A stretch of DNA of 64,000 nucleotides from an uncultured Candidatus Saccharibacteria bacterium (GTDB lineage: Bacteria > Patescibacteriota > Minisyncoccia > UBA6257 > Colwellbacteraceae), in assembly GCA_964360065.1 (NCBI GenBank), contig CAYHTW010000002.1, positions 2,251-66,250 on the forward strand. Direction: 5' to 3'. Position numbers and translations under genes: made by a program. Under the pieces are notes generated by a model that was not told the origin of the DNA, ran no database searches, and worked only from the letters and a program-made list of their open reading frames with translations. Below are positions 17,676 to 59,398 of this stretch, piece by piece (within the stretch, counting starts at the first letter, position 1; each line of letters opens with the position of its first letter).

Positions 17676-17747
17676 GCCCTTGTAGCTCAATGGATAGAGC
17701 AGTGCTCTTCTAAGGCATTGATGCGGGTTCGATTCCTGCCGGGGGCA
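17676..17747 (+). tRNA. tRNA-Arg (anticodon TCT)
   Basis: Anticodon loop ctTCTaa, T-loop gttcgattc. Confidence 0.75.
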
Positions 17748-17752
17748 CATTT

Positions 17753-17823
17753 CGGGCCGTCGTATACCGGTAGTACGCTTGCTTTGGGAGCAAGATGACC
17801 GAGTTCGATTCTCGGCGGCCCGA
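17753..17823 (+). tRNA. tRNA-Pro (anticodon TGG)
   Basis: Anticodon loop ttTGGga, T-loop gttcgattc; lies 6 nt after tRNA-Arg. Confidence 0.75.
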
Positions 17824-17854
17824 CTAGATAGAAAATAAAAGATGGGTCCGATGG

Positions 17855-19647: not shown

Positions 19648-19655
19648 AGTTCTAT

Positions 19656-20174: not shown

Positions 20175-20283
20175 GTTTTTTAATTCTTTTATTGCGGCCC
20201 CGCTAGCGACAACTGAATTTCTAGCGGGGTTCGTAAGTTTATGCTTCGATATGGCTCAGCATAATCCTGAACTTACTGAAGGA

Positions 20284-21063: not shown

Positions 21064-21068
21064 GGGAG

Positions 21069-21569
21069 TTATGGAGTTACTACCGCTTTTATCTCAAGCC
21101 GTGTCGTTCCTCCATTCGCTTCAGTGAGATCAACGAATCTGTCTACCGATCCCACGCCTGCTGGTCCGTGAGCGTTCGGATCGTAAACAACCCTTACGTC
21201 CAGCGATTCTCCGGTCTTGATAACTTCATTTGCCTTGGCGACCTGTCCGCCGTGTCCTGGCATTCCAAACGGCCCCTTTTCTCTACCAGCATTTTCAGTA
21301 TACGCGATAGTGCACATACAGGAAGTTACGACACTTGAGAGTGTCACATCTTTATCTGTCGGATTGGTTACCTTAAATACCTTTTCTACTTTTCCATTAG
21401 TCATTGAAATCGTTCCGAAATCGTACGGCGTTTCTAAAGCGACTAAAGAACCTTTTTCGCTATTCTCGGCCACCGAAGGTACGATTGTCTGATTACTCCG
21501 ACCATAGAACATAAGGCCTATCAGCCCGAGCACGATAATCGCACCTATAATTATTGTTTTTTTATTCAT
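21069..21569 (-). CDS. Secreted DUF1573-like beta-sandwich protein with SCMCT (CxC) motif
   Basis: Signal anchor; FGTISMTNG...SCMCT pattern resembling DUF1573. Confidence 0.45.
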   Translation of the reverse strand: MNKKTIIIGAIIVLGLIGLMFYGRSNQTIVPSVAENSEKGSLVALETPYDFGTISMTNGKVEKVFKVTNPTDKDVTLSSVVTSCMCTIAYTENAGREKGPFGMPGHGGQVAKANEVIKTGESLDVRVVYDPNAHGPAGVGSVDRFVDLTEANGGTTRLEIKAVVTP

Positions 21570-21654
21570 GTTGTTAGTAGAAATTACAAAACCAGTTCGA
21601 CTTACCCGTCCGTAGTTTTATATGGAGGAGGGCAAACGGTTTTACATCGGCGCC

Positions 21655-22068
21655 TTAGTAAGTAGCGGGACTATTTTCGTGCAGAGCTAGCCAGCGCGTT
21701 ATCTCTCTTTTGTATGAAGTGTCGGGCGGAAAATTATAAAGAATACCGACAAGAGCAAGCGGCCTAAGTAAGGATGGACTTATAAAAACTACGAATGTCA
21801 TCCACGGAACAAGAAGTAAAGAAATTATGAGCGCTACGGTACCGAAATTTACGGGTACGTTGATAAATGACTGATAGGCAGAAATATGATGGAGAACTAT
21901 AGCCACAGTATCCTGTGGGCAAAGTGATGCTCCAATTGCTGAAAATGGGCAATCCCCTGATATGCGTCCGTCTGGTCCGTGCATCATAGTGGCAAAGCTA
22001 AAAAGTACGATCGCCATGAACGATAACAGAATAAGTGATGTAATAATTTTATTAAGTAAAGATGGCAT
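21655..22068 (-). CDS. Membrane protein with paired Cys motifs (GDCPFS...LCPQD)
   Basis: Three TM segments and no known family recognised. Confidence 0.4.
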   Translation of the reverse strand: MPSLLNKIITSLILLSFMAIVLFSFATMMHGPDGRISGDCPFSAIGASLCPQDTVAIVLHHISAYQSFINVPVNFGTVALIISLLLVPWMTFVVFISPSLLRPLALVGILYNFPPDTSYKREITRWLALHENSPATY

Positions 22069-22074
22069 ACTTGA

Positions 22075-22296
22075 TTAAATGGTTTCTCCGCGCCTCTCAA
22101 GCATCATGTGATGAATTGTTCCAATCGCAAGCCAAATTGCGATAAGAATAAGAATTCCGGCACAGAGCAGGGCATCAACCTTTGTAACCCCGAATACCAA
22201 GTTATCGGCACCGCCGAGAATAGCGGCCGCGAATGTAATGACTCCGGCGAAGCCTACGGTAACGCTGGTAATATGCATTAATTTTGATAATTTCAT
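22075..22296 (-). CDS. Small two-TM membrane protein
   Basis: 73 aa and hydrophobic, lying immediately downstream of copA. Confidence 0.35.
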   Translation of the reverse strand: MKLSKLMHITSVTVGFAGVITFAAAILGGADNLVFGVTKVDALLCAGILILIAIWLAIGTIHHMMLERRGETI

Positions 22297-22331
22297 AATA
22301 TTTTTTTAATTAATCCAGTAATTTCGACCTT

Positions 22332-24632
22332 TTATAATTTTTTACTTTTAATGCGGAGTGAATTGCCGACTACAGATACACTGGACATTGCCATCGCGAA
22401 TCCAGCGAATACCGGTGACAAGAGCCATCCGAAGACCGGATAAAAAATTCCGGCTGCAAGCGGAATGCCGACAATATTATATATAAAAGCCCAAAAAAGG
22501 TTTTGTTTGATTCCGCGCATGGTCATTTTAGAGAGTGAAATTGCTTTGACCAACTTTGAAATATCTCCGTGGAGAAGAGTGATGCCTGCCGACTCAATCG
22601 CCACGTCCGTGCCTGTGGCCATAGCAATGCCGATATCGGCTTGCGCGAGCGCTGGCGCGTCATTAACGCCGTCTCCATCCATCGCCACAATTTTACTCTC
22701 CGCCTGCAATTCTTTTATTTTATTTAACTTATCTTCCGGCATTACTTCCGCGACTACATCGTCTATTCCTACCTGTTTTGCTATCGCCAGAGCCGTATTT
22801 TTATCGTCTCCGGTAAGCATTACTATTTTAATGCCAAGCTTGTGAAGATTTTTCACCGCCTCTATCGCTTCCGGTTTTATGGCGTCCGCAACCATAAATA
22901 CACCAAGTACGGATTCTTTGGTAGCAAGTACAACCGGTGTTTTCCCTTCGGCGGTTTCTTTTTGAAGTTCTTCTTTATTAAAAGCGAGGTTTAAGTCAGA
23001 AATGAGTTTGATGTTGCCGGCAAAATATTCCGCGCCGGAAACCGTTCCCTTTAATCCCTTGCCTTTTATAATTTCAAAGCCCGAAACAGACGCAAGCTCA
23101 ATACTATTCTGCTTCGCGTATTCCGTAACAGCGTGGGCAATTGGATGCTCGGATTTATTCTCAAGCGAAGCCAAAATTGAGATTATTTCTTTTTCGCTTT
23201 TTGATGAATGATTTTTAATGCTTACCAATTCCGGCCTCCCGCGGGTCAATGTGCCTGTCTTATCAACTACCACCACATTCACCTTATGAAGCTTCTCAAG
23301 TGTGGCCGCGTCTTTTACCAGTATTCCTTCACCTGCACCCTTGCCTACTCCAACGATAATCGCTGTCGGTGTGGCCAACCCTAAGGCACACGGGCAGGCA
23401 ATGACCAAGACCCCGACAAATGAAACCAGCCCGTACGAAAGCGCCTGCGCGAACCCAAGATACTGCGAGCCAATAAGAAACCAGAGGCCAAGAGAAAGAA
23501 AGGCAATAACTAACACAATCGGCACAAACACACCGGAAATTTTATCCGCCAACGCCTGAATCGGCGCCTTTGACCCCTGCGCTTCCTCAACCATCCTTAT
23601 GATGTTCGCGAGCATGGTTTCGGAACCAACCTTTGTCGCTTTGAAAATAAAAGCGCCGCTTGTATTAATAGTCCCGGCGACAACGGTATCCCCAGGCATT
23701 TTCTCAACCGGCATCGGCTCACCGGAAATCATTGATTCGTCAACAAAGGACTGCCCTTCGGTAATTACACCATCAACTGGAATTTTCCCTGCTGGTTTTA
23801 CAATAATCAAATCACCGTGTACGACCTCGGTAATAGGAATTTCAACTTCTTTCCCGTCTCTTGTTACGAGCGCTGTTTTGGCCTGCAAATTTAAAAGTTT
23901 TTCTATCGCGTCTCCAGTCTTCAATTTTGAACTAGCTTCAAGATATTTGCCAAGCGTAATGAAAGCAATGACTATAATCGTCACATCAAAGTAGGACTGA
24001 TTAACATTTATGTAGGGCTTTAGAGTTTCCCCGAACGCCATAATAGCAAAGCTATATACAAAAGCCGCACTTGTTCCAATACCTATAAGCGTATCCATAT
24101 TAGCCTTGCCATAGCGGAGAAACCTGTAAAATCCCAAAAGATACGGCTTACCGACAACAAGAAGCATGTAAGTCGCCATGATTGGGAGCAAATATCGAAA
24201 AGCTCCTTCCCAAACCGGCGTAGCAGCTGGAATAATTTTGAACTGCGCCAAAATGTCCCATGCCAATATAACGGCACTAATAAAAGCAAGCGGCAGAGCG
24301 GATAAAACTTTCGTTCTCATATCAGCAAGTTCGGCCAGCTTTTCATTTTTCGTCTGATTAAGTCCCAAGTGCGCTGCGTGCTCGCCCTCGGACATTCCCA
24401 TTTCCGCCGCGGACCGCTCTTCTGGAACAACTAAAGAATATCCAAGTGGCTCAATGTGTTTGGAAAGAGCCTGAGGACTTGTTTTTGAAGGATCAAAAGA
24501 AACTTTTGCTTTTTCCGTGCCATAATTGACCTCAACGGATTCCACTCCTTCAACTTTTTTGAAAGTCTTTTCAATCATTGATGAGCACGAAGCGCAATGC
24601 ATTCCGCGAATCTTATATGTTTCTTTTTTCAT
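22332..24632 (-). CDS. copA: Copper-translocating P1B-type ATPase CopA
   Basis: N-terminal HMA domain [12 protein letters not shown] in TM6, DKTGTLT phosphorylation motif, GDGVNDAP. Confidence 0.9.
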
Positions 24633-32118: not shown

Positions 32119-33354
32119 TTATAATGGCAACCCGAGGAGCTTCATTGCTTCTTTAAGACCGTTGAAAGAAGTGCTAACGACAAGATAATTATTGAACCGG
32201 GCGTAATTAAAAGAGGCTCCTATGGTGGAATAATTAATATATCTGGCCTTAGCGTCGCCAATGGTTATACCGTCCTTGAAAACTCCTATAGCTGCTCCAG
32301 GAGAAGTTAAGAATAAATTAGGCAAGTTGTCGGAAGACTCTATACTTTTTATGTCGGCAGAGACGGTAGCGGGGTTTGCCGAATCGTTTAGTTTAAAGAT
32401 ATAACCCGGCCTAGAACCATTAGCATCTTTGTAAACGAAAGCGGTCATGTCTCTATCGAAGGCGGTCAAAATTGTCGTTGGGTTCAGTTCCGGGAAGGCA
32501 ATAGCCATAAAAGCTGTGGCATCAACCGGAGAATTATTTACATTAAGGTTGATTTCGGTGAGAGTCTTGGGTTGAGCACCGAAAACAGCCGCAGTAAAAG
32601 CCGTTTGGATTTCGCCGAGAGTTAAAGTGGTCAGATTAACTGTGGAAGTAGAGGTCGGGGCAGTAATGAAAAAGGTTTGATGAGTTAACTGGGTGACTAC
32701 GGGGGGGGTGTTAGTGGTTGCTGAGGTTTGATCTCCGGTAGTATCAGTTGTGACGGAAACGGGGGTATTATTTCCCACTGGGAAAATAAGAGGCATGATA
32801 AAGAAGTAAATAACGAGTCCTGCTATAACAACAAGCGCGGCTGAAGCAGCTACTATAAGTAACGAACTTGGGCTATGTGCTGGTAGAACTACTTTAGTAG
32901 TGGCTCCTGGTGCCGAAGTGACCGCAGAAGGGTTGAAAACTGGCGCCTTAGAAAAATCAGCAGGCTGGAAAGTAGTTGGTTTAGTCTCAAGTCCTCCAGT
33001 TGATTTCAGAGAGGAAAGGTCGCTGGCCATAGTTCTGATGCCAATATCTGGAGCTGGAGGTGGAGGAACCGGAGAAGAGGTCCTGGCGGAAAAATTAGGA
33101 GGCGTAGTAAAAGAAACGGGGGGAGCCATAGGTGGACCCTGTTGGATCGGGGTAGTAGGTGTTACCGGAGAAATTGGTTTTGGCGCTATTGGAGATATTG
33201 GTGGGGCTACCGGCGGAGGTGGCGGTGGCGGTGGAGGAGGAGGCGGCGGTACTGGAGAACTATCAGGTATTCCAGCTGGCGGAACCGGCGGTTTATATTC
33301 GTTGTTGTCCGGCAAAGGAGCCGGACCTTGTAAGTTGTCTTGGTTACCGTTCAT
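32119..33354 (-). CDS. Proline-rich membrane-anchored protein (13-residue polyPro tract, single TM)
   Basis: Low-complexity Pro/Thr-rich N-terminal half, a TM helix, and a folded C-terminal domain. Confidence 0.5.
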   Translation of the reverse strand: MNGNQDNLQGPAPLPDNNEYKPPVPPAGIPDSSPVPPPPPPPPPPPPPVAPPISPIAPKPISPVTPTTPIQQGPPMAPPVSFTTPPNFSARTSSPVPPPPAPDIGIRTMASDLSSLKSTGGLETKPTTFQPADFSKAPVFNPSAVTSAPGATTKVVLPAHSPSSLLIVAASAALVVIAGLVIYFFIMPLIFPVGNNTPVSVTTDTTGDQTSATTNTPPVVTQLTHQTFFITAPTSTSTVNLTTLTLGEIQTAFTAAVFGAQPKTLTEINLNVNNSPVDATAFMAIAFPELNPTTILTAFDRDMTAFVYKDANGSRPGYIFKLNDSANPATVSADIKSIESSDNLPNLFLTSPGAAIGVFKDGITIGDAKARYINYSTIGASFNYARFNNYLVVSTSFNGLKEAMKLLGLPL

Positions 33355-35524: not shown

Positions 35525-36058
35525 TTATTGCTTCTTCGCTTTCTTAAAAACTTTAAAAACAACTCCCGGGGTTTTACCTAAATCTATAAAAGAATCCGCA
35601 GTGTCTTCCAACTTGGAGGAAGCGGTCCTATCAAAAGCGGCTACTTCCACGGTCCTGCCCAGCCCCCACTTTAAATATTCGACTAAAGGGATAAAATCCC
35701 CGTCACCGCTTACTATAATAACTACATCTACTAAGCTCGCCATTCTGATAGCGTCAACGGCGAGCCCCACATCCCAATCGGCTTTTTTCATGCCATCCGG
35801 GAAAATCTGGATGTCTTTAATACGAAGTTCTATACCGGCCTTGTTTAGAGCATCAAAAAAAGCGCCCTCACCTGTAGCGGGATCGCTTTTAACAACATAA
35901 CCAAGAGCCCGAACAAGACGTCTGCCGTTAACGAGACGTTTTAAGAGATTATCAAAATTGACACGTCCGCCATATAAATTCTTGGCGGAATGATAAAGGT
36001 TCTGGATATCAATGAAGACTCCAACTCGCTGTTCCTTATTGGCTTGCACTACAGACAT
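35525..36058 (-). CDS. NYN/LabA-like (PIN-fold) putative RNase, translationally coupled to rpsO
   Basis: VGVFIDIQNLYH ... VVIIVSGDGDF acidic-residue pattern of NYN domains; the ATG overlaps the rpsO stop (TAATG). Confidence 0.65.
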   Translation of the reverse strand: MSVVQANKEQRVGVFIDIQNLYHSAKNLYGGRVNFDNLLKRLVNGRRLVRALGYVVKSDPATGEGAFFDALNKAGIELRIKDIQIFPDGMKKADWDVGLAVDAIRMASLVDVVIIVSGDGDFIPLVEYLKWGLGRTVEVAAFDRTASSKLEDTADSFIDLGKTPGVVFKVFKKAKKQ

Positions 36059-37511: not shown

Positions 37512-38357
37512 ATGGAGACCGAACGCGTTTGTATATTTATAGATGGCGGGAATTTTTATCATCTTGCGTTACAAAGACTTGGATTGCATGAAGTAGATTT
37601 TGATTTTGATAAATTCGCCACGTTTCTAGCTAATGGGAGGACTATAGCTAAAGAAGGAAAAAGATTTTATATAGGGACTGTAAGAGAGATACATGATGGG
37701 CACGAAAATAAACAGGCGATGATGCACCAAACAGCTCTTTTCCGTGAATTAATAGAGAAGGGTAATTGGGGAATTAAAACGAGTAAGCTAAGAACTAGAT
37801 TAGAGAGAATTAAAATTGATGATAGGTTTATAGATTATCAAAAACTACTTAAGGCTGGCTTTAAGGAAGTTGCTTATACTAGATCTAGAGAAAAAGGCAT
37901 TGATGTCAAAATGGCTACTGATATAATTGTTGGCGCAATAGATAAGAAATATGACACAGCTATCGTAGTTAGTTCAGATACAGATATTATACCAGCAATA
38001 GATTGGGTACGGATGAGGCTACATAAAAAAGTAGAATACGTTGGATTCTCTATGCCAGAAACCAAAACAAAAGAGGCTATTAAGCCTACAAAGACCATGA
38101 TTTATAAAACCGATGTACAGAGGGTTCTAATTGACTCAGATTTATACCCACGTTACAAACAAAGAACTCCACGAAGTCCACGACGCTTTCCACGGCAGAA
38201 GGAGAAAGTAATTTATTTTCTAGAAAGTTTGGCGCGCGCCAGCTCCATAGCTACCAACCGGGGATTCTTTTTCTCGGCAACTGATTTTCGAAGCACTGCC
38301 TGGGTGGTTTTCTTGATTTTTTTCTCCACTAAATCAAGCATCCGTTTCGGATTGTAA
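37512..38357 (+). CDS. NYN-domain (PIN-like) protein; the ORF reads through the downstream repeat copy, so the last ~70 aa are probably non-native
   Basis: CIFIDGGNFYH, KGIDVKMATD and VSSDTDIIPA motifs. The C-terminal tail is encoded by the duplicated recombinase 3' end and by gdh antisense sequence. Confidence 0.6.
   Translation: METERVCIFIDGGNFYHLALQRLGLHEVDFDFDKFATFLANGRTIAKEGKRFYIGTVREIHDGHENKQAMMHQTALFRELIEKGNWGIKTSKLRTRLERIKIDDRFIDYQKLLKAGFKEVAYTRSREKGIDVKMATDIIVGAIDKKYDTAIVVSSDTDIIPAIDWVRMRLHKKVEYVGFSMPETKTKEAIKPTKTMIYKTDVQRVLIDSDLYPRYKQRTPRSPRRFPRQKEKVIYFLESLARASSIATNRGFFFSATDFRSTAWVVFLIFFSTKSSIRFGL
38137..38211. repeat. Direct repeat copy 2 (displaced duplicate of recombinase 3' end, still ending in TAA)
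   Basis: See copy 1. Confidence 0.8.
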
Positions 38358-39358
38358 CCGCGGTGTTCGGCATAGGATGAGATGACTCCACCGGCGTTAG
38401 CTATCATGTCCGGCACTATCATAATTCCTTTCTGCCAGAGCCAATGCTCCACGTTTTCCCGCATAGGGATATTGGCTCCCTCAACTATGATTTTCGCTTT
38501 AATACTGCTTTTGTTTTTGTCGTTAATGACATCTGTAACAGAAGCTGGAATCAAAATATCAACCTTCAGACCGAAAATAGCATCACGGCTTATTTTTTTG
38601 CCAGGCTTGTAGTCAGCTACAGACTTTCTCTCTTTTTTGAGTCCCATCAGTTTTTTGTAATCCAAACCGTCGGCGTTATAGACACCGCCACGGCTGTCAG
38701 CCACTGCCACAATTTTCGCTCCAATCTCTGCCAAATACTTGAAAGCAAAAGTTCCCACATTACCAAAGCCCTCTATGGCCACCGTAGCTCCTTTAATATT
38801 GAGCCCGTAAACTTCGGCGGCTACTGCCGTAGCTTGGGCTACGCCAAAACCCGTGCTGCCAAACTCATGCGGGATGCCGCATCGTTCCCCCTTTTTGCCG
38901 AAAATTTTCATACATAGGTCTGCCGGCTTGCCAGTAGCGGAATGCCAATTGCCGGTTGCCTCCACAAACCATTTCATTTCTCGCTCTCCTGTATTAACAT
39001 CGGGACCCGCGATATACATTTTAGGAGTCAGAGGTTTTATGGCCCGGGCAAAGCTTTGTATGTATTCTTTCTTTAACTCTTCCGAGCCGCCTGACCAAAC
39101 TATTCCAGCTTTAGCCCCGCCGAAAGGAATGTCGGCTAAAGCATTTTTAAAAGTCATGGTTCTCGCTAAACGAGCCACTTCGGTTTCTGTAACATCGGGT
39201 GTCATGCGAATACCGCCCTTACCTACACCCAAAGTCGTGTTATCAATAACCAAAAATCCACGCATACCGAGCAAAGGATCATAAACCTTAACGACTACTT
39301 CGGGACCAATTTTATCTTCGCCAGTTTTATTTTTTGTTTTAATTTGCTCCTGTTTCAT
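38213..39358 (-). CDS. Glu/Leu/Phe/Val dehydrogenase family (short form)
   Basis: KGGIRMTPD...GGAKAGI and GFGNVG Rossmann motifs. Confidence 0.8.
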   Translation of the reverse strand: MKQEQIKTKNKTGEDKIGPEVVVKVYDPLLGMRGFLVIDNTTLGVGKGGIRMTPDVTETEVARLARTMTFKNALADIPFGGAKAGIVWSGGSEELKKEYIQSFARAIKPLTPKMYIAGPDVNTGEREMKWFVEATGNWHSATGKPADLCMKIFGKKGERCGIPHEFGSTGFGVAQATAVAAEVYGLNIKGATVAIEGFGNVGTFAFKYLAEIGAKIVAVADSRGGVYNADGLDYKKLMGLKKERKSVADYKPGKKISRDAIFGLKVDILIPASVTDVINDKNKSSIKAKIIVEGANIPMRENVEHWLWQKGIMIVPDMIANAGGVISSYAEHRGYNPKRMLDLVEKKIKKTTQAVLRKSVAEKKNPRLVAMELARAKLSRK

Positions 39359-39447: not shown

Positions 39448-39629
39448 AGTTATATAGATAAATACTAGTATAACTTGACTATTTATTCAAAATATGGTAT
39501 TAATTAAGGAATGGAGAGGGAGTGAAAATAACCCGCCAGCTGGCGAACTATTCCCCTTCTTCTTCGCTAGCCACAATAAAAACCCGTCTTACAAAAAACG
39601 GGTTTTTAAATTGCGCATTAAAGCACTTA

Positions 39630-39983
39630 CTACGCTCCTGGGAAAAGCCCTTTAACTACTATAGGTATGGCCTTAGCGATAAGAGCCACAAAGATGGCAA
39701 TAATAGCGTAGAGCATGTAGTGCTTGGCTTTAGTCAAGTTGTCTTCTATGGCGCCGGCAGTCAGGTACATATAGGCCGCCCAAAGGATAAAGATGGCAGC
39801 TAGCGCAACTAAAAGGGCGACTCCGAAGTTCATGATATTCTCAATTATCCTGGGAATATCTATGCTATTGGTGGTGTTGACTGGTGGAAGATTGCCTGGC
39901 AGTGCCTGAGCATAAACGGTGGCTGCCTGTGAAGCAAAGAGTAGGGCAGTGGAAACTATTTTTGAATTAAATTTATTTATCAT
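39630..39983 (-). CDS. VirB2/TrbC-like mini-pilin (signal peptide plus two hydrophobic helices), paralog 1
   Basis: Signal peptide ending AQA, then two TM helices separated by a short charged loop. Confidence 0.45.
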   Translation of the reverse strand: MINKFNSKIVSTALLFASQAATVYAQALPGNLPPVNTTNSIDIPRIIENIMNFGVALLVALAAIFILWAAYMYLTAGAIEDNLTKAKHYMLYAIIAIFVALIAKAIPIVVKGLFPGA

Positions 39984-40044
39984 ATTTTAGTGCTAAACTT
40001 CGACCTTTTTGTTTTTAATAAGATACCATAAAGGCCATTATTTG

Positions 40045-40431
40045 TTAAGTGAGGGGGGCGGGACAGAAACCGATATCACCAGCTCCCAATAGTCCGGTGA
40101 TAAGAACGACTAATCCTTTAGCGAGCAGAATTATCGCTAATCCTATTACAGTGTAAAGAATGGTGTTCTTCCCGGCTTCAAATCTTTGAGGACTCTCGGC
40201 GGCTGTCAGTATCAGGAAAGCGCCATAGAGTATCATTAAGCCTGCTATAGGAATAGAAACGGCTATTATGAAGTCTGTAACACTATAGATAATAGGGCAG
40301 ATGTCCTGGGGCAATAGCGTCCCGTCGGGTAATCTAGGAGGTTGGATGCTTAAACCACCACCGGAAGAATTTGAGCCGCTATCTCCCGGAAAAACAGTAT
40401 CGGCTAAAACTTTTTGTATTAAAAAATTCAT
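40045..40431 (-). CDS. VirB2/TrbC-like mini-pilin paralog 2
   Basis: Shared motif ILYGAFLILTAAESPQRFEAGKNTILYTVIGLAI with the neighbouring genes. Confidence 0.4.
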   Translation of the reverse strand: MNFLIQKVLADTVFPGDSGSNSSGGGLSIQPPRLPDGTLLPQDICPIIYSVTDFIIAVSIPIAGLMILYGAFLILTAAESPQRFEAGKNTILYTVIGLAIILLAKGLVVLITGLLGAGDIGFCPAPLT

Positions 40432-40434
40432 AAT

Positions 40435-40761
40435 TTATCCCGATAAAGCCCTGGTCACCAATGTTACTAGAATGTATGACCCGAAGACTATAAATAAACC
40501 TATCACAGCTCCTATAATAGCATCTTTACCTTTTTCGTACCTACTTTCTGAACCGCCTGAAGTGAGTATGGTGAAACCTCCGTAGAGAATAACGAGAACC
40601 GCTAAGGGAATGGCGCCATAAAGCAATAAAGTCATTAAATTAGTAATCGTCTGAGACAATTCGGGCCAGCCGTAACCGCCGCTTGGGGATTGCGGCACTA
40701 TAGGAAAAATCGTTAACAAAATCCCTTTAAACTTATCTCTACTTGTGTCTACTTTTATCAT
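40435..40761 (-). CDS. VirB2/TrbC-like mini-pilin paralog 3
   Basis: ILYGGFTILTSGGSESRYEKGKDAIIGAVIGLFI, the same architecture. Confidence 0.4.
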   Translation of the reverse strand: MIKVDTSRDKFKGILLTIFPIVPQSPSGGYGWPELSQTITNLMTLLLYGAIPLAVLVILYGGFTILTSGGSESRYEKGKDAIIGAVIGLFIVFGSYILVTLVTRALSG

Positions 40762-42029
40762 TGAATAGAGTTCAGCGCATTTTGGGCTCCACGCAAAGCT
40801 TTATCTGGAGTCAATCTACCTGATAATACTGATTCTATCATATCATCAAAAGCTTTTTTTACTTCCACGTCATCCGGTTGAAGCCAGCTTTTGGCGGTTA
40901 GCGCCTGACCAGCAAAAACTCCAAGGGTAGGGCTGTTAAGATATTGGCCGATAAGACTTCTTAGTGCAGGCGGCTTAGCTCCGGCGGTAGCATAGGCGGA
41001 AGCAGTAGTCGGATCGGTAGTAGCGAATAAAACGAAGTTCCAGGCCGCATCTTTAGCCGCAGTCTTAGAAGAAACGGCTAGCCCCCAATAGTTAGGGAAA
41101 TTCACGGATTCTTTTTTATTCATTTGTGGAGCCGAGGTAATGGCAAAGTTTAAAGAAGGGTTTTTGGCTTTGATTTCCGGAATTTGAGAAGCGTAACCCA
41201 ACATCATAGCCAATTGTTTCGTTGCAAAAGAGTCTATGTCGGGCCCAGAAGTGCTTGCCCAGGTGTAATAAAGATTTCCGTACTTGGCAAACTGCGTATA
41301 AAAGTTAAGAGCTTTAAGGCCCTCGTTGTTAGAAATAGATACATCACCAATACTATTTCTCATGGCCGTTCCGAATTGTAGAAAAAGCAAATTAAGAATG
41401 TCTGTGGCGTTAGTAACCGACTTGGAAGTCGCTCCGATGCCAAGCCCCGATTTAACAATGGCGCCCTTACTCCCGAATTCGCGGGTACGCAAAATATCGG
41501 CTTTAAGTTCATCCCAAGTAACCGGGGGCACGGCGATTTTCTTATTATCAAAAATGTCTCTGTTGTAGAAAAGAGCGAGTGTGTCAATTGACAAGGGGAG
41601 GGAATAAATCTTGCCCTGATAGACAAAATCTTCTTCAGCTACTTCGGGGAAGAGCTTTTTGAAAGCAGAAAGAGTGATAGCTGTATCTGTAGTTGGAACA
41701 ATTTTGTTGCCGTGCTTTAAAAGCCAGGAGTTTTTGAAAAAGAAAATATCTGGGCCTTTGTCGGCGGCGAGACTATTCAAAAGCTGCTTCTCATAGCTGG
41801 CTTCCGGTAGTTGCGTGTATTTAACAGCGTTGCCTGGGTATTTATTCTCAAAAGAACTAATGGTGTTGCTCCAAAGCTTGGAGTCATCAATCCCCCAAAC
41901 CTGCAGAGTCGCCCGGCCTCCTATGTCTTCGCGTAATCCAGGGACGACACCAAAGAAAACAAGCAGGAAGAAAAGGATTATGAATCCTGCCGTACTTAAT
42001 ATAACTAGTTGTGGTCGGGTGAATTGCAT
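40758..42029 (-). CDS. ABC-transporter extracellular solute-binding protein (family 1, sugar-type)
   Basis: Signal anchor and SBP_bac_1-like pattern. No cognate permease or ATPase genes are adjacent. Confidence 0.7.
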   Translation of the reverse strand: MQFTRPQLVILSTAGFIILFFLLVFFGVVPGLREDIGGRATLQVWGIDDSKLWSNTISSFENKYPGNAVKYTQLPEASYEKQLLNSLAADKGPDIFFFKNSWLLKHGNKIVPTTDTAITLSAFKKLFPEVAEEDFVYQGKIYSLPLSIDTLALFYNRDIFDNKKIAVPPVTWDELKADILRTREFGSKGAIVKSGLGIGATSKSVTNATDILNLLFLQFGTAMRNSIGDVSISNNEGLKALNFYTQFAKYGNLYYTWASTSGPDIDSFATKQLAMMLGYASQIPEIKAKNPSLNFAITSAPQMNKKESVNFPNYWGLAVSSKTAAKDAAWNFVLFATTDPTTASAYATAGAKPPALRSLIGQYLNSPTLGVFAGQALTAKSWLQPDDVEVKKAFDDMIESVLSGRLTPDKALRGAQNALNSIQ

Positions 42030-42043: not shown

Positions 42044-44467
42044 CTAGAAACAGACCGTTCCAGCAATCTTGTCGCCGGCTTTCAGTCTCATAATGCGAAC
42101 TCCTTGGGCCGCCCTGCCGGTTAATCTCACGCTCGACAATTCAGTACGCAACATCTGGCCTTTAACGGAAATTGCCAATATTTCTTTCTCTTCGGAGATC
42201 ATATGAGAAGAAACTAGTTCGCCAGTTTTCGGAGTAACCTTGGCAGTCAAGATTCCCTTGCCTCCCCTTTTCTGAACTTTATATTCTTTGAGTTCGGTGA
42301 GTTTAGCAAAGCCGTTATCCATTACTACCAGAACTTTATAACCCAGCTTATCGGGAGAAATAACATCAAAGGCGCCCACAAAATCTCCTTTTCTCAAAGA
42401 AATACCCCTGACTCCTGCGGCCGTTCTCCCCATCGGACGAACTTCGCTTTCTTTAAATCTAATGGCTTGCCCTTTAATTGTGGTGAGAATTAATTCTTCT
42501 TTTCCAGTGGAAAGTTTCACCCAGCCTAAACTGTCTCCTTTCTTAAGACTCACGGCGATGATGCCCGTACGTCTCACGTTTTCAAATTCGGAGATAGCCG
42601 TCTTCTTAACCACGCCTTGTTCGGTCATCATAACGATATACCCTGGAGCTTTACCGCGCACAGTGGAGTAAGTGATGATAGCGCTGATTTTTTCAGCCGG
42701 AGGGATTTCCAGGAAGTTGTGGATGGCCTTTCCCTTACTGACACGGCTGCCAACCGGAAGTTCGTAAACTTTTGTTTGGTAAGCCTTGCCGCTAGCGGTA
42801 AAGAATAGAATATTGTCATGTGTGTTGGCGGCCAAGAAATGACCTACCACGTCTTCTTCTCCGACTTCACTGCCCATAAGACCCTTGCCACCTCTTTTTT
42901 GCTTCTTAAAGGTGTCTGGCGAAAGACGTTTAATGTAACCGTCACCGGACATAGTAACAATGGCGTCTTCGGACAGAATCAAATCTTCAACGTTCAGTTC
43001 TTTAAGGCCGCTTACGTGTAGCTTTGTTTTTCTCTCGTCTCCAAACCTTTTTCTAATGTCAGCGAGTTCTTCTCCCACTACTTTAAGCATTTTGGCCGGA
43101 CTTTTTAAAAGGATTATCAGTTCCTCAATAAGTTTTTGTTTTCCCTTAAGCTCGTCTTCTATCCTCTGGGTCTCCAGAGCAGCTAGGGTCTGCAACTTCA
43201 TTTCTAAAATAGCTGTGGCTTGTAAATCGCTGAGCTTGAAGCCAGACATCAACTTCTTATGGGCGTCTTCTTTATTTTCCGACTTCTTGATGGTGGAGAT
43301 TATCTTATCAATAACAGAGAGGGCCTTAACCAACCCTTCTAATATATGGGCTCTCTCGCGGGCCTTATTTAAATCAAACTCGGCCCTCCGCCTGATTACT
43401 TCCTGCCTGTGGGCTACGAAGTTCTCCAAGACGTCTTTAATAGACATAATCTTTGGCTTCAAACCACCGCTTAAGGCCAGCATGTTTAAATGGAAATCTT
43501 TCTGAAGGTCGGTCCAGTTGTAAAGTTGGTTCAAAACCTTCTGCGGCACAGCGTCGGACTTCAAGTCTATAACTACTCTTAAGCCGTCCTTGTCGGACTC
43601 GTCTCTTAAGTCTCTGATGCCCTCAATTCTTTTTTCCGTTACCAGCTCGGCAATTTTAATAATCATTTCGGCCTTGTTAACCTGGTAAGGAATTTCTGTG
43701 ATGACTATTTTCTTTTCTTCTATTTCAGCTACACCGCGAACTGTAATCCTGCCTCGGCCGGTGGCATAAGCTTCGTTGATTTCTTTTTTGTTATAAATAA
43801 TTCCTCCGGTCGGGAAATCCGGTCCTTGGATAAATTTCATCAAATCTTCCGAGGAGGCCTTGGGATTGTCTATTAATTTGTAAGTTGCATCAATAATCTC
43901 AGTCAGATTGTGTGGAGGAATCTTAGTAGCCATACCGACAGCGATACCATCAGAACCGTTTATCAAAAGTTGTGGGATTTTAGCCGGCAGAACCTTAGGC
44001 TCGGACCTCGTAGTGTCATAGTTCGGCATAAAATCCACAGTTTCTTTCTCAATATCAACGAGAAGCTCTTCGGCTAAAGCCGATAAACGACACTCTGTGT
44101 AACGCATGGCCGCGGGTGAGTCTCCATCAACACTGCCCCAGTTCCCTTGCCCCTCAATAAGCGGATATCTCAAGGAGAAGTTCTGTGCCATACGAGCTAA
44201 GGCATCATAAACAGATTGGTCGCCGTGAGGGTGGTAACGGCCCAAGACTTCTCCGACTACATTAGCTGACTTTCTTAATTTAGCGGAATGTGTGATACCC
44301 GACTCCCACATAGCCCAAAGGATTCTGCGGTGTACCGGTTTTAAACCATCGCGGACATCGGGCAAGGCGCGGCCGACGATAACCGACATAGCATAGTCCA
44401 GATAAGACTGCTTAAGTTCCTCGGTTATTTCCTTTTTCTCTATTTTTTCTATTTCTCCTTGAGCCAT
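42044..44467 (-). CDS. gyrA: DNA gyrase subunit A
   Basis: [29 protein letters not shown], active-site Tyr region, C-terminal beta-pinwheel repeats. Confidence 0.95.
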
Positions 44468-48098: not shown

Positions 48099-48174
48099 GC
48101 GCCCATAGCTCAGCTGGTTAGAGCACAGTCCTTATAAGGCTGGGGTCCTTGGTTCGAGTCCAAGTGGGCGCACC
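48099..48174 (+). tRNA. tRNA-Ile with anticodon TAT (UAU), CCA encoded
   Basis: Anticodon stem-loop cagtc-ctTATaa-ggctg, T-loop ggttcgagtcc. Confidence 0.7.
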
Positions 48175-48180
48175 AGATAA

Positions 48181-48248: not shown

Positions 48249-49049
48249 CTAGTTTTTGCGATTCTTCATGAATAAGACGAGGAAAACAGCTAACATAACG
48301 AGAACGATGGTTCCTCCAGTAGAGAGATTGAAGTAGAAAGAAGTAATAATGCCGGCAATGACAGATAAAACAGAAATTAATTCTGCATAAAATATAGTTT
48401 CAGAAAAACTTTTTTTGAGCTGCAAAGAAGCCACAACGGGAACGACTATTAAGGCAGCTATAAGAAGAACGCCGACAACTGGAATAGAGAGTGAAACGGT
48501 AAAGGCGGCTAAAATAATGAGAACGGCGTTTATGAGTTTAGTGGGAAGACCGCTCACTCTCGCGGCTTCCTCATCAAAAGTTATGTAGACCAGTTCTTTA
48601 TAGAAAAGTAAAAGAGTAACGCTAACAATAATCGCCAAAACTCCCATAGTATAGACGTCCGTTGTGGTAACTGTAACAATACTGCCAAAAAGATAGCTGA
48701 AAAGATTAGTATTAAAACCCTTAGCTAAACTAAGCAGAACGATTGCTAAGGCTAAGCTTCCGGAAAGAAAAAGCGCCAAAGCAGATTCCCCATATATTCT
48801 TTTAGTATCTCTTAAGCGCTCTATGCCTAAAGAAGAAACAACCGTAACTCCCAAGGCCGTGAGAATCGGATTTAAACCGAAAAGCAACCCAATGGCTATG
48901 CCAGCTAAAGAGACGTGAGCCAAGGTATCGGCTATCAAAGAGTATCTCCGCAGGACAAGGAAGATGCCGATTAGTGGAGCGACGAAAGCCACTATTAAAC
49001 CTGCCTCCAGCCCCCTTAAAACAAAACTATACTGGAATAGGTTAAGCAT
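48249..49049 (-). CDS. Metal (Zn/Mn) ABC transporter permease
   Basis: ABC-3 family polytopic membrane protein. Confidence 0.75.
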   Translation of the reverse strand: MLNLFQYSFVLRGLEAGLIVAFVAPLIGIFLVLRRYSLIADTLAHVSLAGIAIGLLFGLNPILTALGVTVVSSLGIERLRDTKRIYGESALALFLSGSLALAIVLLSLAKGFNTNLFSYLFGSIVTVTTTDVYTMGVLAIIVSVTLLLFYKELVYITFDEEAARVSGLPTKLINAVLIILAAFTVSLSIPVVGVLLIAALIVVPVVASLQLKKSFSETIFYAELISVLSVIAGIITSFYFNLSTGGTIVLVMLAVFLVLFMKNRKN

Positions 49050-49800
49050 TATGGTGATGATTTGCTACTCTCCCGTCTTTGGCAGAATGTAATTTTTCTT
49101 TAAGAAAATCTTCTAATGTGCCGTAGAAAAAAAGTGTGCGATCAAGGCAAGCAACGTGCATGGCCTCATAAGCGATGTCCTCAATGTCGTGAGTGATCAA
49201 AACTACAGTGAGATCTAAGTCCTGGTTAAGTTTTTTAAGTAAAACATAAAAGTCGTCTCTCGCGGCCTTGTCCACTCCTGTAGTCGGTTCGTCCAAAAAG
49301 ATTATCTCCGGTTCCGCCGCTAGTGCCCTCGCTATAAAAACTCTCTGTTGCTCTCCGCCGGAAAGTTCTCCAATAAGCCTATCTTCGTATTTTCCCATCT
49401 CCACTCGTTCTAAAGCGTGACGAGCCGCCAATCTATCTCGGCTAATTAATTTCCTAAATAGGCCGCGCTTGGCATAACGACCCATCAAGACTACTTCCAT
49501 AACGGTGGCAGGAAAATTAGCGTCAAAATTAGTGACTTTCTGAGGTACGTAGCCTATCTTGGAACGACTTTTAAAGTCGTTGTCCTCTACGCCGAATAAC
49601 TTGATTGATCCCGAGGAAGGTTTAAGCAGGCCTAAAATTATTTTTAGAAGTGTTGTTTTGCCGGAACCATTAGAACCGACAATTCCCAAATAATCCCCGC
49701 GATGAATATTGAAATTTATGTTTTTTAAAATTTCGTTCTCGCCGTAAGAGAAAGAAACATTTTTAACCTCAACTATATTTTCTTTATGGTTTACTCGCAC
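49042..49800 (-). CDS. Metal ABC transporter ATP-binding protein
   Basis: Walker A GSNGSGKTT, signature LSGGEQQR, Walker B IIFLDEP. Confidence 0.8.
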   Translation of the reverse strand: MRVNHKENIVEVKNVSFSYGENEILKNINFNIHRGDYLGIVGSNGSGKTTLLKIILGLLKPSSGSIKLFGVEDNDFKSRSKIGYVPQKVTNFDANFPATVMEVVLMGRYAKRGLFRKLISRDRLAARHALERVEMGKYEDRLIGELSGGEQQRVFIARALAAEPEIIFLDEPTTGVDKAARDDFYVLLKKLNQDLDLTVVLITHDIEDIAYEAMHVACLDRTLFFYGTLEDFLKEKLHSAKDGRVANHHHNA

Positions 49801-50714
49801 TCTAATGCAACTTTAAGATTATTTAGATTATCTCTCATCTCTGTAAAATAGTTTTTACCGGCGTTGGTCTCGGCTCTCGTAAGTCCTTCCAATGGATTAA
49901 GCACTAAGGTTTTAGCTTCTATCTCTGTAGCTATGGTTTCTGATAACTTGGGATTCACCAAGCTCTCAAAGAAAATATACTTTACCTTGTTTTCTTTGGC
50001 GAATTTTACTATTACTCCGATTTCTTTAGAGGAGGGCTCGGCATCGGGAGAAAGACCGGCGATGGATATTTGCCGTAAACTATAAGTCGCAGCCAGATAA
50101 CCAAAGAAGGCGTGGGATGTAATAATGTCTTTAAGGGCGCAGTTTTTAAGCCCGGCTGAATAGTCGGCGTTAAGATTTTTAAGATCATTACTTAAAGCCT
50201 CCGCGTTAGTAGCGTAGTAAGAAGTGTTAACTGGATCGGACGCTTGAAAACCGCTCAATATCTTGTTGGCCATCTCTTCAGCCAAAAGAGGAGAAAGCCA
50301 AACGTGTGGGTCAACTACGTTTTCACCTTCCTCAACCAATCGCTGGTTAAAAAGACCCCCTCCGGCCACAACTAAGACAGTCCGCTTATGGTTTAAATTA
50401 CTCTTTATGTTATCTCCCCAAACTTCCAGGTTGCCTCCGTTAAGGACTAGTAAATTACTTGATTCAATGAGCGCCATATCCTGGGCAGTTGGTTCGTAAT
50501 CGTGTGGTTCAACCCCGGCTGGGGTGATGTTGTAAACATCTGCCTTATCTCCGCCTATTCGTTCCGAGAAGTAATAAAGAGGGTAGAAACTGGCTACCAC
50601 AGTGATCTTTGCTCCATTATTTTCTGGAGAACTCACCCGATTGTTAAGCAGGGCAAGTCCGCCCAGTAAACTGAATAGGAAAATTATCGCTATTAAATAT
50701 TTGGTTTTTGTCAT
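49791..50714 (-). CDS. Metal ABC transporter substrate-binding protein (ZnuA/TroA-like)
   Basis: Signal anchor and the cluster-9 SBP pattern. Confidence 0.75.
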   Translation of the reverse strand: MTKTKYLIAIIFLFSLLGGLALLNNRVSSPENNGAKITVVASFYPLYYFSERIGGDKADVYNITPAGVEPHDYEPTAQDMALIESSNLLVLNGGNLEVWGDNIKSNLNHKRTVLVVAGGGLFNQRLVEEGENVVDPHVWLSPLLAEEMANKILSGFQASDPVNTSYYATNAEALSNDLKNLNADYSAGLKNCALKDIITSHAFFGYLAATYSLRQISIAGLSPDAEPSSKEIGVIVKFAKENKVKYIFFESLVNPKLSETIATEIEAKTLVLNPLEGLTRAETNAGKNYFTEMRDNLNNLKVALECE

Positions 50715-53034: not shown

Positions 53035-53472
53035 CTAAAATTTTGGATTCTTATCGTAATATCCCGATTTATAAAGGCGCCATATAACCTTATAATTTTT
53101 AGGCACGTTCGTGTCTCTTCCAATATTTTCTAACCATTCCTCAAACTGTATGCCCTTATGTCCATAAAGCCTTTTATAGAAGAACGGTACAATTGTATTT
53201 TTAAGCGTTCCAAGGTCCCTAACCATCAACCTAACTATTGCGCCTCTATTATGACCGTCTTTCCTATACGGGCCGAGCCTATACATTCTAGTCTTTATAT
53301 TAAGATGATTTCTTACGGCTTCTACGAGATCACCATCTCTCTCATTCATGGTGATAGTGAACATAGGAAGTCTTGGTTTCATTGATTGGCCATTCTTCAA
53401 TGGTACATTACAAAAACTAAAACATCCCTCTCCTTCTATAAGTCCCCTAATGTAATCGTTAGTTAAAATCAT
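53035..53472 (-). CDS. Free-standing single-motif LAGLIDADG homing-endonuclease-like protein (145 aa)
   Basis: YIRGLIEGEGCFSF is a LAGLIDADG-type motif; its size matches homodimeric single-motif enzymes. Confidence 0.7.
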   Translation of the reverse strand: MILTNDYIRGLIEGEGCFSFCNVPLKNGQSMKPRLPMFTITMNERDGDLVEAVRNHLNIKTRMYRLGPYRKDGHNRGAIVRLMVRDLGTLKNTIVPFFYKRLYGHKGIQFEEWLENIGRDTNVPKNYKVIWRLYKSGYYDKNPKF

Positions 53473-57299: not shown

Positions 57300-57675
57300 A
57301 TTTTATCCAGATAGTGCCTTTAGGAAGAATATGCCTAACTTTATCGGCCCACTCTATTACTACTATATTAGGGGATTTAAAAATCTCTTTAGCTCCCAGA
57401 TGCACGAGGTCGTAAGCCGCTACCCGGTAAGCGTCAATATGGTACACGTTCCTCTTACTTTTTAAAACGAACCTCCGCATAACGAGAAACGTCGGACTAG
57501 TGACTTTTTTCTTACTGCCCAAGGCTTTAATCAAACTCTTAGTGAAAGTAGTTTTGCCTGCGCCCAGATCGCCGACCAACCCGAGGACAACGAGAGATTC
57601 AGTTTTTATAATCTCGCTCCCTAAAACTTCGGCTAGATAGGAAGTTTCCTTGGGGTTTAAAGATTTGATTCTCAT
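57238..57675 (-). CDS. tsaE: tRNA t6A37 biosynthesis ATPase TsaE
   Basis: GDLGAGKTTFTK P-loop, about 145 aa. Confidence 0.8.
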   Translation of the reverse strand: MRIKSLNPKETSYLAEVLGSEIIKTESLVVLGLVGDLGAGKTTFTKSLIKALGSKKKVTSPTFLVMRRFVLKSKRNVYHIDAYRVAAYDLVHLGAKEIFKSPNIVVIEWADKVRHILPKGTIWIKFAHSRDSNHQNERHLTFNRR

Positions 57676-58175
57676 TATTTATCCGCCGGCTGGCGGAACA
57701 ATTTAAATATATGGACACTCGCGAGACCAGAGAGAACTGCTAGAAAAAGTCCAAGGACGATGGGCCAGAAATCATAAGTTTCTTTGAAATTGAATCCCAC
57801 AGCCGGGGCGCTTTGAGTAACTGTAGAAACGATGGACGCCTCGGCGCGTGCGGTTCGAAACCTAGCAGCTATTACAATCTGCCCCTCGGTAATTCCATTG
57901 TAGCCTAACTTATCAACTTCCTTGCCAGAGACATCGGAGATGTAAACAGAGTCGGAGTCATTGTTTAAAGTTATTCTTGTTTCATTGTAAGACAGCTTTA
58001 AATCCCCAGAAGGGGGAATAGTTTGCCCATCTAATTTAAAAACTTTCCCACCCGCATCTCTAAGTGCCCAGCCATTTAAAACAACTGGAGAAGAGCTGTC
58101 GTTAAAAAGTTTTATCCATTCACCGTCTGCGTCTTTACCAGCCGGATTGGGCAAAAGCTCTTTAAAGTAAATCAT
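57675..58175 (-). CDS. Lamin-tail-domain (LTD) protein with C-terminal TM anchor
   Basis: ELLPNPAGKDADGEWIKLFN is a typical LTD start. Confidence 0.55.
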   Translation of the reverse strand: MIYFKELLPNPAGKDADGEWIKLFNDSSSPVVLNGWALRDAGGKVFKLDGQTIPPSGDLKLSYNETRITLNNDSDSVYISDVSGKEVDKLGYNGITEGQIVIAARFRTARAEASIVSTVTQSAPAVGFNFKETYDFWPIVLGLFLAVLSGLASVHIFKLFRQPADK

Positions 58176-59255: not shown

Positions 59256-59398
59256 TAGGCCTGCGGGCAGAGAATCTATTGAGGCAGGACAATCTGGTTT
59301 CGGCTGGGTTACTCCCCACAACAGATTCTAAGCTTTTTTAGATTTAATTTAAAAGAGCATCATCCCTCCAAGGAATTGCCCGCAGACCTACTTTTTTT
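59256..59398. other. Nested long-range inverted repeats (15 bp gtaggcctgcgggca / tgcccgcagacctac and 7 bp agaatct / agattct) followed by T7; candidate structured RNA or terminator
   Basis: Outer stem with one mismatch spanning about 105 nt, an inner helix, and a terminal ttttttt. Confidence 0.35.

Follow-up and report, generated by a model that had tools for sequence, protein, structure and literature searches.

A solute-binding protein gene in an apparent operon with three classes of VirB2-like pilin gene in a groundwater member of Paceibacteria

The 64-kb stretch of DNA analysed here (64,000 nucleotides of contig CAYHTW010000002.1, assembly GCA_964360065.1; hereafter the window) carries on its minus strand a gene for a family-1 solute-binding protein (SBP) that is followed directly by three small tandem genes for pilin-like membrane proteins. 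The small genes are labelled pilC, pilB and pilA, names coined here for open reading frames (ORFs) of 108, 128 and 117 amino acids, respectively. On the best reading, (gyrA-)SBP-pilC-pilB-pilA is a native, vertically inherited chromosomal operon of a groundwater bacterium belonging to Paceibacteria (Patescibacteria, or candidate phyla radiation, CPR). The SBP is, as judged from its sequence and its structural model, a membrane-tethered MalE-like oligosaccharide-binding protein, and the three small proteins can be assigned with high confidence to the VirB2 family of pilins. Comparison with relatives indicates that pilC, pilB and pilA represent three anciently diverged pilin classes that are kept in order. 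Pilin triplets that lie apart from virB4 have been described before, and the SBP-pilC-pilB-pilA cassette with its fixed class order appears to be undescribed. Taken as a whole, the locus is on balance best explained by pilins that serve, in trans, a type IV secretion system (T4SS) encoded on the chromosome and are co-expressed with a glycan receptor.

The operon and its products

The SBP gene (40758..42029, minus strand) encodes 423 amino acids. Directly 5' of it, across a gap of 14 nt, lies gyrA (42044..44467, minus strand; 807 amino acids, recognised from its translation), which is probably the first gene of a transcription unit shared with the SBP and the pilins. On the 3' side, the stop codon of the SBP gene and the start codon of pilC (40435..40761, minus strand) share four nucleotides (ATGA). 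The intergenic gaps that follow measure 3 nt between pilC and pilB (40045..40431, minus strand) and 61 nt between pilB and pilA (39630..39983, minus strand). An earlier note on this DNA had described three small tandem ORFs and an adjoining SBP, and its coordinates and lengths for them are exact. The end of the operon is marked by a strong hairpin with a U-run that resembles an intrinsic terminator (39578..39607, minus strand). By RNA folding its stability is -16.7 kcal/mol (z = -5.5), a value equalled by none of 200 shuffled sequences, and a tRNA-Leu gene is the next feature beyond it. A scan of the sequence for consensus promoters and terminators gave sites that were no commoner than in shuffled sequence and missed this hairpin. 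The cassette is taken to be native because its GC content (0.41-0.45) matches that of the window (0.43) and because the surrounding genes are housekeeping genes, coding for RNase Y, ClpB, FtsK, RecA, NusA, PNPase, S15, XerC, S1, FtsH and RuvB. An identical SBP (P0018) is found in Hainich groundwater assemblies, where it is likewise accompanied by the three pilin genes, and the window most likely comes from this Hainich lineage.

The SBP passes the Pfam families SBP_bac_8 (90 bits) and SBP_bac_1 (86 bits). A profile of 19 SBP sequences matched 5ci5 in the PDB over its full length (E 2e-28), together with binders of trehalose/maltose and of maltodextrin, and many aromatic columns are invariant among the 19 homologues. 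In the AlphaFold2 (AF2) model (pLDDT 91.6), an N-terminal transmembrane helix (residues 4-25) and a disordered linker (28-35) precede a two-lobe MalE-like fold, for which Foldseek returned binders of cyclo/maltodextrin, cycloalternan, sophoro-oligosaccharide and mannobiose (TM-score 0.7-0.8; E of about 1e-24 to 1e-27, best 7e-27). The full-length profile, the fold and a membrane tether in the style of monoderms are thus features held in common with the MalE-like SBPs of ATP-binding cassette (ABC) importers. Unlike those proteins, the window SBP has a transmembrane anchor that looks uncleaved and no lipobox, its gene overlaps a pilin gene, and no MalF, MalG or MalK gene is local to it. The anchor opens with a conserved M-x-[FL]-[TS]-[RK]-x-Q-I-I-I. 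A class III prepilin signal, defined by a basic leader, Gly at position -1, a hydrophobic residue at +1 and Glu at +5, is absent from 89 SBP N-termini, which open with this motif and have no leader, no Gly at -1 and Gln in place of Glu.

All three small proteins exceed the curated gathering cut-off of Pfam family PF18895 (T4SS_pilin; 26.6 bits), with 28.0 bits for pilA, 40.1 for pilB and 41.3 for pilC. The cut-off of PF04956 (TrbC/VirB2; 27.9 bits) is reached by none of them: pilC falls 0.9 bits short at 27.0, pilB scores 18.8 and pilA has no match. By these profiles, the three proteins are members of the VirB2/TrbC superfamily that lie outside PF04956 in the strict sense, and the earlier assignment to VirB2/TrbC-type pilins is borne out. 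There is also a weak match of pilB to NCBIfam Mbov_0395, a pilin-like conjugal transfer protein of a mycoplasma integrative and conjugative element (ICE; E 4e-5). The three are paralogues by BLASTP, with 38% identity between pilB and pilC (E 2e-14), 30% between pilA and pilB (E 3e-11) and 28% between pilA and pilC (E 1e-7), or 27-38% overall. A hidden Markov model (HMM) built from the three found no fourth paralogue in a six-frame translation of the window. Among Pfam profiles, no holin family was matched by pilA, pilB or pilC, and the small proteins gave no match to N_methyl, the type IV-pilin type. Some other candidates were rejected. The weak match of pilA to DctQ, the small subunit of tripartite ATP-independent periplasmic (TRAP) transporters (E 0.011; 16 bits against a cut-off of 28.3), was judged compositional and is absent from pilB and pilC, and matches of the pilins to ABC2_membrane_3, CKI and Saf_2TM lie far under the cut-offs of those families.

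Hydropathy gives each of the three proteins two hydrophobic stretches around a polar loop of 9-12 residues with K, R or E. The core motif that the earlier note had ascribed to all three is found in pilB (MILYGAFLILT...GKNTILYTVIGLAI) and pilC (VILYGGFTILT...GKDAIIGAVIGLFI) and is degenerate in pilA (FILWAAYMYLT...AKHYMLYAIIAIFV). The loop motif and the helix register are kept across 248 homologues, and pilB has an exposed N-terminal segment rich in Gly, Ser and Pro as well as a C-terminal tail of 13 residues. The AF2 model of pilC, built from 18 sequences, is a helical hairpin (H31-65 and H71-106) with a mean pLDDT of 75.5 and values above 90 in the helices. Its Foldseek match of highest probability in the PDB (0.91) is 8dfu, a conjugation-type pilus of Aeropyrum pernix, at a TM-score of 0.64 normalised to the target and a non-significant E of 0.67. 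The Agrobacterium T-pilus VirB2 (8exh) stands at rank 13, with 26% identity and a target-normalised TM-score of about 0.58. All E-values for the pilC model are above 0.1 and none is significant, a helical hairpin being too simple a fold. A sequence search of pilC against PDB chains gave no match, even at E 10.

Pilins of the pilC type are, on profile matches, a very large family: a profile of pilC and its relatives retrieved 80,732 cluster representatives at E <= 1e-3 from a library of 1.84 billion proteins. Fused ORFs with several hairpins lead the ranking of this search. One such poly-pilin (P0138) has seven hairpins in 606 amino acids behind one signal peptide and another (P0149) has 17 matched stretches in 1775 amino acids. 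The available passages of the Patescibacteria T4SS literature contain no mention of poly-pilins.

The pilins of diderm conjugation systems, i.e. VirB2, TrbC and TraA (Agrobacterium T-pilus, RP4 and F), share with the window proteins a leader, two hydrophobic helices, a short basic loop and a length of about 70-130 amino acids. The window differs from these systems in its monoderm setting and in having no adjacent virB operon and no VirB5. It also has three differentiated pilin classes whereas diderm T4SSs have one major pilin, and the leaders in its subclade are short and atypical. The CedA1 pilin of the crenarchaeal Ced system for DNA import (8dfu) offers a second comparison, as it forms a VirB2-like pilus in an envelope without an outer membrane and serves import, not export. 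However, it has no sequence-level match to pilC, and the Ced machine genes CedA and CedB are not found at the window locus.

Conservation in relatives and the three pilin classes

Relatives of the SBP were sought by scanning one genome per GTDB species, and at least 580 species had a match. The cassette was examined with 10-kb flanks in the best 80 of these species loci, at SBP identities of 37-84%; the 80 loci span Wolfe-, Colwell-, Lipton- and Harrisonbacteria and other Paceibacteria. Pilin ORFs in these loci were detected with an iterated HMM seeded with the window pilins, and each was assigned to a class (A, B or C) by its best match among window pilA, pilB and pilC.

The co-occurrence of pilins and SBP that the earlier note had proposed to look for is seen in nearly all of this sample, with the SBP gene followed directly on the same strand by one to six pilin ORFs in 77 of the 80 loci. 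The three exceptions are two contigs that end at the SBP and one locus (L035) where the pilins are replaced by a type IV pilus cluster headed by PilB. The gap between SBP and first pilin has a median of 13 nt and is below 100 nt in 71 of the 77 loci; in 12 loci the two genes overlap by 4 nt, just as they do in the window. Arrays of three genes are the most frequent (36 loci), followed by arrays of four (16), two (8), one (8), five (6) and six (3), some of which run into contig ends. Eight further contigs, with independent gene calls and precomputed Pfam labels, agree with this picture. Orthologues in relatives carry the Pfam label PF18895 independently, and a direct Pfam scan of ten pilin ORFs from the loci found this family in eight, at or above the curated cut-off in five. 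Accordingly, neither a better match to another family, such as holins or a family of unknown function, nor a lack of cluster conservation was found, the two outcomes that the earlier note had named as counting against its reading.

The upstream side of the cassette is also conserved. The gyrA gene (labelled DNA_topoisoIV and DNA_gyraseA_C) lies directly 5' of the SBP gene on the same strand in 73 of the 80 loci (median gap 41 nt), and the block made up of S1, a metallo-beta-lactamase (MBL)-fold gene, a small ORF in some loci, and gyrA is conserved about equally well. The downstream side is freely variable. In one locus (L076) the SBP-pilin unit is intact without gyrA upstream. A second such case (L052) was dropped, as its upstream ORF of 1057 amino acids may be a gyrA with an insertion. 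The small ORF between the MBL-fold gene and gyrA ('f5'; about 103 amino acids, no Pfam family, e.g. L028:6816-7127) is present in 45 of the 80 relatives. The window lacks it, and its MBL-fold gene and gyrA overlap by 19 nt.

Pilin classes follow one another in a set order. The order is C-B-A in 29 arrays and C-B-A-A in 12, 53 of the 77 arrays open with C-B, and extra copies are mostly of class A, which is the class most often duplicated. The region after the signal is also particular to each class. Class C has LVPCG..C..C, with two or three cysteines before helix 1 in most species; these cysteines are lost in the window pilC and its closest relative P0002 (FPIVPQSPSGGYGW). Class B has a Gly/Ser-rich stretch ending in NPLG, and class A a Pro-rich stretch. 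Since the order is fixed and the N-terminal motifs are specific to their classes, the three are ancient, differentiated paralogues and not recent duplicates. A natural fusion of a class C hairpin with a class B hairpin (P0146, from the representative library) is close to the pilC-pilB pair of the window.

The earlier note had given all three proteins a signal or leader followed by two helices with a charged loop. The hairpin holds for all three, whereas a classical Sec signal is present in pilA only (MINKFNSK-IVSTALLFASQAATVYA|QA, with predicted cleavage at VYA|QA). The leader of pilB (MNFLIQKVLA|DT) is short, as is that of pilC, at about 10 residues in both. Full n-h-c signals ending in AxA are carried by the orthologues of all three classes in most of the 80 species, and the short leaders of pilB and pilC are therefore a trait of the window's subclade. 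Small hairpin proteins can insert into the membrane without a long signal, and pilB and pilC presumably do so.

Several species have a long pilin (270-390 amino acids) in first or second place behind the SBP, consisting of an N-terminal PF18895 module and an extension of 180-270 amino acids without a Pfam match (L032:11320-12246; L055:10048-10938; L061:11139-12032; L074:11403-12299; L019:11051-11917; L087:11749-12615; and two ORFs in L051, 8395-9579 and 9626-10792). An N-terminal adhesin domain was considered for these proteins and ruled out, as Pfam puts the pilin module at the N-terminus. Under a topology with both termini outside, the C-terminal extension would be extracellular, which makes it a candidate adhesin or tip domain.

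Secretion partners, proposed mechanism and alternatives

Pilin arrays of this kind have been described in Patescibacteria. In Southlakia epibionticum, the one species tested for this, the T4SS locus is reported to be essential and to include a series of predicted pilins that are essential as well (Wang et al., 2023; PMC10633639). A 2025 review likewise gives the Southlakia pilin array and T4SS as essential and presents the Patescibacteria T4SS as unique among monoderms for its potential to build conjugative pili, with the VirB2-like pilins as its distinguishing feature (PMC12857230). A survey of 3,035 Patescibacteria genomes, whose profiles included PF18895 and PF04956, reports VirB2-like pilins in 1,948 VirB4-positive assemblies, with a pilin near virB4 in only 1,135, which leaves about 40% of the pilin-bearing genomes without one there (Quinonero-Coronel et al., 2025; PMC12102498). 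The same paper describes 441 arrays of 2-11 pilin genes, in tandem or one gene apart, with a mean identity of 25% and a maximum of 54%, and suggests that variation within arrays may help adaptation to different hosts (PMC12102498). The window trio fits this definition of an array, having three tandem genes, gaps of 3 and 61 nt and 27-38% identity. It is like the published arrays in its PF18895 membership, tandem genes, low paralogue identity, monoderm CPR chromosome and lack of a relaxase context. The Southlakia array, however, sits within the T4SS locus, whereas that of the window is unlinked from a T4SS and stands in an operon with a MalE-like SBP 3' of gyrA. Neither the SBP link nor the C-B-A order is mentioned in the available parts of PMC12102498, in which 'solute', 'substrate-binding' and 'ABC' are absent from the text and SBP terms from the supplements. 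In the literature searched, the coverage of which is incomplete, no paper joins Patescibacteria, a solute-binding protein and a pilin. For Saccharibacteria, a 2024 perspective describes what the T4SS does as 'completely unknown' and mentions uptake as one option (PMC11665869).

Partner genes were sought in the window by reading all ORFs of at least 190 amino acids and by Pfam scans of 20 smaller or unassigned ORFs. As the earlier note had stated for VirB4, VirB6 and VirD4, the 64-kb window contains none of these genes, nor VirB3 or TrsD. It had also called the SBP an orphan, in agreement with the lack of any MalF/G-type permease or MalK-type ATPase for it in the same 64 kb. The sole ABC transporter in the window is a complete ZnuABC set (48249-50714), and the sole secretion ATPase is the PilB/GspE protein (59397-61067, minus strand) that had already been singled out as such; both were recognised by eye and from labelled relatives. 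The PilB/GspE gene is flanked by ruvB and a YebC-family gene, and neither PilC nor pilins adjoin it. In the relatives, the scan took in 20 neighbour families, each recurring in about 5 or more of the 80 loci, and these families included neither a permease or ATPase of the ABC type nor a gene of the T4SS machine within 10 kb of the cassette. The single exception is a T4CP-like (type IV coupling protein) ATPase at 9.6 kb in L033. What these scans of window ORFs and neighbour families did return was housekeeping only (Band_7/SPFH, PaaX/Cas2-like, Trp-repressor-like, SHMT, FolD, RNase J, a peptide SBP and others). In L001, a PilB-PilC-prepilin cluster (12820-18319) lies about 1.7 kb downstream of the SBP-pilin cassette, and in L035 the PilB-led cluster that takes the place of the pilins after the SBP runs from 11329 onward.

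A T4SS machine is very likely present in this lineage. Table S1 of PMC12102498 gives 'Yes' for VirB4 in each of the five cassette-bearing relatives listed there, namely L050 (GCA_001000675.1), L024 (GCA_001793825.1), L032 (GCA_001793855.1), L016 (GCA_001817765.1) and L031 (GCA_002784365.1). Two other Wolfebacteria genomes have, according to the available part of Table S3, a T4SS locus with a single VirB2 three genes from virB4, plus TrsD (PMC12102498). In Paceibacteria, virB4 is reported to lie mostly near dnaA and dnaN. A stand-alone minimal appendage, as the earlier note had envisaged, is not supported, since pilins are commonly away from virB4 in Patescibacteria and the five listed cassette relatives are all VirB4-positive. 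The note's other suggestion, a substrate-capture module, is a possibility to which the conserved operon lends some weight.

Assembly of the pilins by a T4SS encoded elsewhere is probable, and a functional coupling of the SBP to the pilins, beyond mere synteny, is conceivable though somewhat doubtful. In the preferred explanation, the pilins would be inserted in the membrane with their N- and C-termini outside and trimmed at AxA. They would then be extracted and polymerised by an MPF-FATA-like T4SS whose genes (VirB4/TrsD/VirB3/VirB6) would lie at another chromosomal site, in Paceibacteria mostly close to dnaA, and the product would be a contact pilus or a conduit towards a host cell. Classes C, B and A would serve as distinct subunits, e.g. 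major, minor and tip-proximal, and not as interchangeable antigenic variants. The SBP would be located at the same site of the cell surface, where it would most likely recognise a glycan derived from the host or present on the host surface. It might pass this glycan to an ABC importer encoded elsewhere, or it might itself be a receptor of the lectin type and assist the pilus in making contact with the host. Without its anchor the SBP should be soluble, which would open it to expression and glycan-array screening, and knowledge of its ligand would show what the epibionts recognise on their hosts or take from them.

Several points weigh against this explanation. The leaders of pilB and pilC are too short for ordinary Sec signals, and the pilin fold matches lack significant E-values, as is to be expected of a bare helical hairpin. 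The coupling to a T4SS is drawn from other genomes, no machine gene lying in the 64 kb or, among the families scanned, within 10 kb in the 80 relatives apart from the one ATPase in L033. The T4SS locus may have a pilin of its own, as in the two other Wolfebacteria genomes, in which case the trio beside the SBP might supply additional or minor subunits and not the primary pilin. Finally, the adjacency of SBP and pilins is about as conserved as that of gyrA and SBP, and synteny within one clade could suffice to account for it without a functional link.

This last point leads to the alternative that survives best, although it is rather unlikely: the SBP would belong to a distant sugar ABC importer, the pilins would serve the T4SS separately, and the cassette would reflect an inherited order of constitutive envelope genes 3' of gyrA. 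The order S1-MBL-gyrA-SBP-pilins is indeed syntenic in about 73 of the 80 loci, with the SBP-pilin junction no better kept than the gyrA-SBP junction. The SBP fold is wholly canonical for MalE-like proteins, its invariant aromatics are typical of true sugar receptors, and SBP genes apart from their permeases are common in monoderms, which also counts in favour of mere neighbourhood. On the other hand, the spacing of SBP and pilins is very tight, with frequent 4-nt overlaps of start and stop, and L076 keeps SBP and pilins together without gyrA. The SBP-pilin junction is constant while the downstream flank varies, and no MalF/G-type permease or ABC ATPase occurs among the recurrent neighbour families scanned, a scan that did not extend to rarer families. 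If the linkage of the SBP is mere synteny, the locus is an ordinary example of the published phenomenon.

At the other extreme, the SBP and the three pilin classes might form one Paceibacteria-specific surface machine, a pilus or stalk coupled to a tethered oligosaccharide receptor. This is unlikely. In such a machine the receptor would be either the host-recognition lectin of the pilus, filling the missing adhesin role of VirB5 or PrgB, or a glycan catcher at the mouth of an import-directed T4SS. If true, the single machine would provide the first concrete handle on a substrate or ligand of the Patescibacteria T4SS.

A module independent of any T4SS, in which the hairpin proteins anchor, organise or transduce for the SBP as a bindosome-like scaffold or as an uptake or sensing complex, is improbable. 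The Sulfolobus bindosome provides a precedent by analogy: its sugar SBPs carry class III signal peptides and depend on three small pilin-like proteins, BasABC, plus BasEF. In both cases an SBP is genetically tied to three small pilin-like membrane proteins. The cassette never adjoins T4SS machine genes in the 80 loci, and the fixed set and order of classes and the C-B fusion protein would fit an obligate hetero-complex. However, the N-terminus of the window SBP is a plain signal anchor and not a class III signal, the small proteins are of the VirB2 type and not the type IV pilus type, with no N_methyl match, and no BasE/F-like genes adjoin. The same pilin family is, moreover, essential and located within the T4SS locus in Saccharimonadia, and three proteins with two transmembrane helices each and no ATPase are unlike any known importer. 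Identity with the bindosome was itself ruled out on the class III signal, which leaves a loose analogy.

Little probability also attaches to a variation array, in which the paralogues would be interchangeable versions of one pilin that serve host range or evasion of defences, as has been proposed for the VirB2 proteins of Bartonella and Anaplasma. This interpretation is the one offered for the published arrays (PMC12102498), and the low paralogue identity (27-38%) and a copy number that ranges from one to six among species, mainly through duplication of class A, are in keeping with it. Nevertheless, even between species with SBP identities of only 37-50%, C, B and A are each orthologous and in the same order, and a conserved N-terminal motif marks each class, such as LVPCG..C..C in C and NPLG in B. 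Orthologous classes with their own motifs point to old, differentiated subunits under purifying selection, not to rapid diversification, although variation may still apply to the extra copies of class A. Together with the natural C-B fusion, the fixed C-B-A order argues for reading the published 'pilin arrays', in Paceibacteria at any rate, as sets of distinct subunits rather than antigenic variants, with consequences for the modelling of such arrays. Holins or generic small membrane proteins that match the pilin model by hydrophobic composition are highly improbable and largely refuted: the proteins are short with two transmembrane stretches, pilA is only 1.4 bits over the cut-off and has weak compositional matches to DctQ and ABC2_membrane_3, but pilB and pilC are 13-15 bits over it and have further matches to TrbC and the mycoplasma ICE pilin-like protein, no holin is matched, motif and register are kept in the 248 homologues, orthologues are labelled PF18895, and the context is chromosomal without phage genes.

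Other features of the window

Several further features of the window can be noted. A tRNA-Ile gene with the anticodon TAT (UAU) lies at 48099-48175 (plus strand). In most bacteria, AUA is read by a lysidine-modified CAU tRNA and a UAU tRNA-Ile is uncommon, and the gene may mean that decoding is independent of TilS. An ORF with an NYN domain (281 amino acids, 37512-38357, plus strand) and a convergent gene for a Glu/Leu/Phe/Val dehydrogenase (38213-39358, minus strand) share 145 nt at their 3' ends. The NYN ORF ends in a stretch that is first basic, then hydrophobic, and that does not look domain-like. A second NYN gene is located at 35525-36058, and the two NYN genes flank rpsO and xerC. Between small genes there is a free-standing LAGLIDADG homing-endonuclease ORF (53035-53472, minus strand; 145 amino acids, PF00961, E 5e-9), without an obvious host gene for an intron or intein nearby.

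Between nusA and pnp, a gene at 32119-33354 (minus strand) encodes a membrane protein of 411 amino acids with 13 consecutive prolines, a long N-terminal half rich in Pro, Thr and Ser, and no Pfam match; relatives have an unannotated gene at the same position. A cluster at 18691-24632 (minus strand), assigned mostly by eye, resembles genes of copper handling and disulfide chemistry. It comprises a CopA-type P-type ATPase (22332-24632), a DUF1573 protein (21069-21569), a CcdA-like membrane protein (20284-21063) and two unannotated genes, one at 19656-20174 and one for a Cys-rich product at 18691-19647. Between ruvB and tsaE, a gene at 57675-58175 (minus strand) encodes a protein of 166 amino acids with a lamin tail domain (PF00932, 54 bits), which is unusual for a reduced genome.

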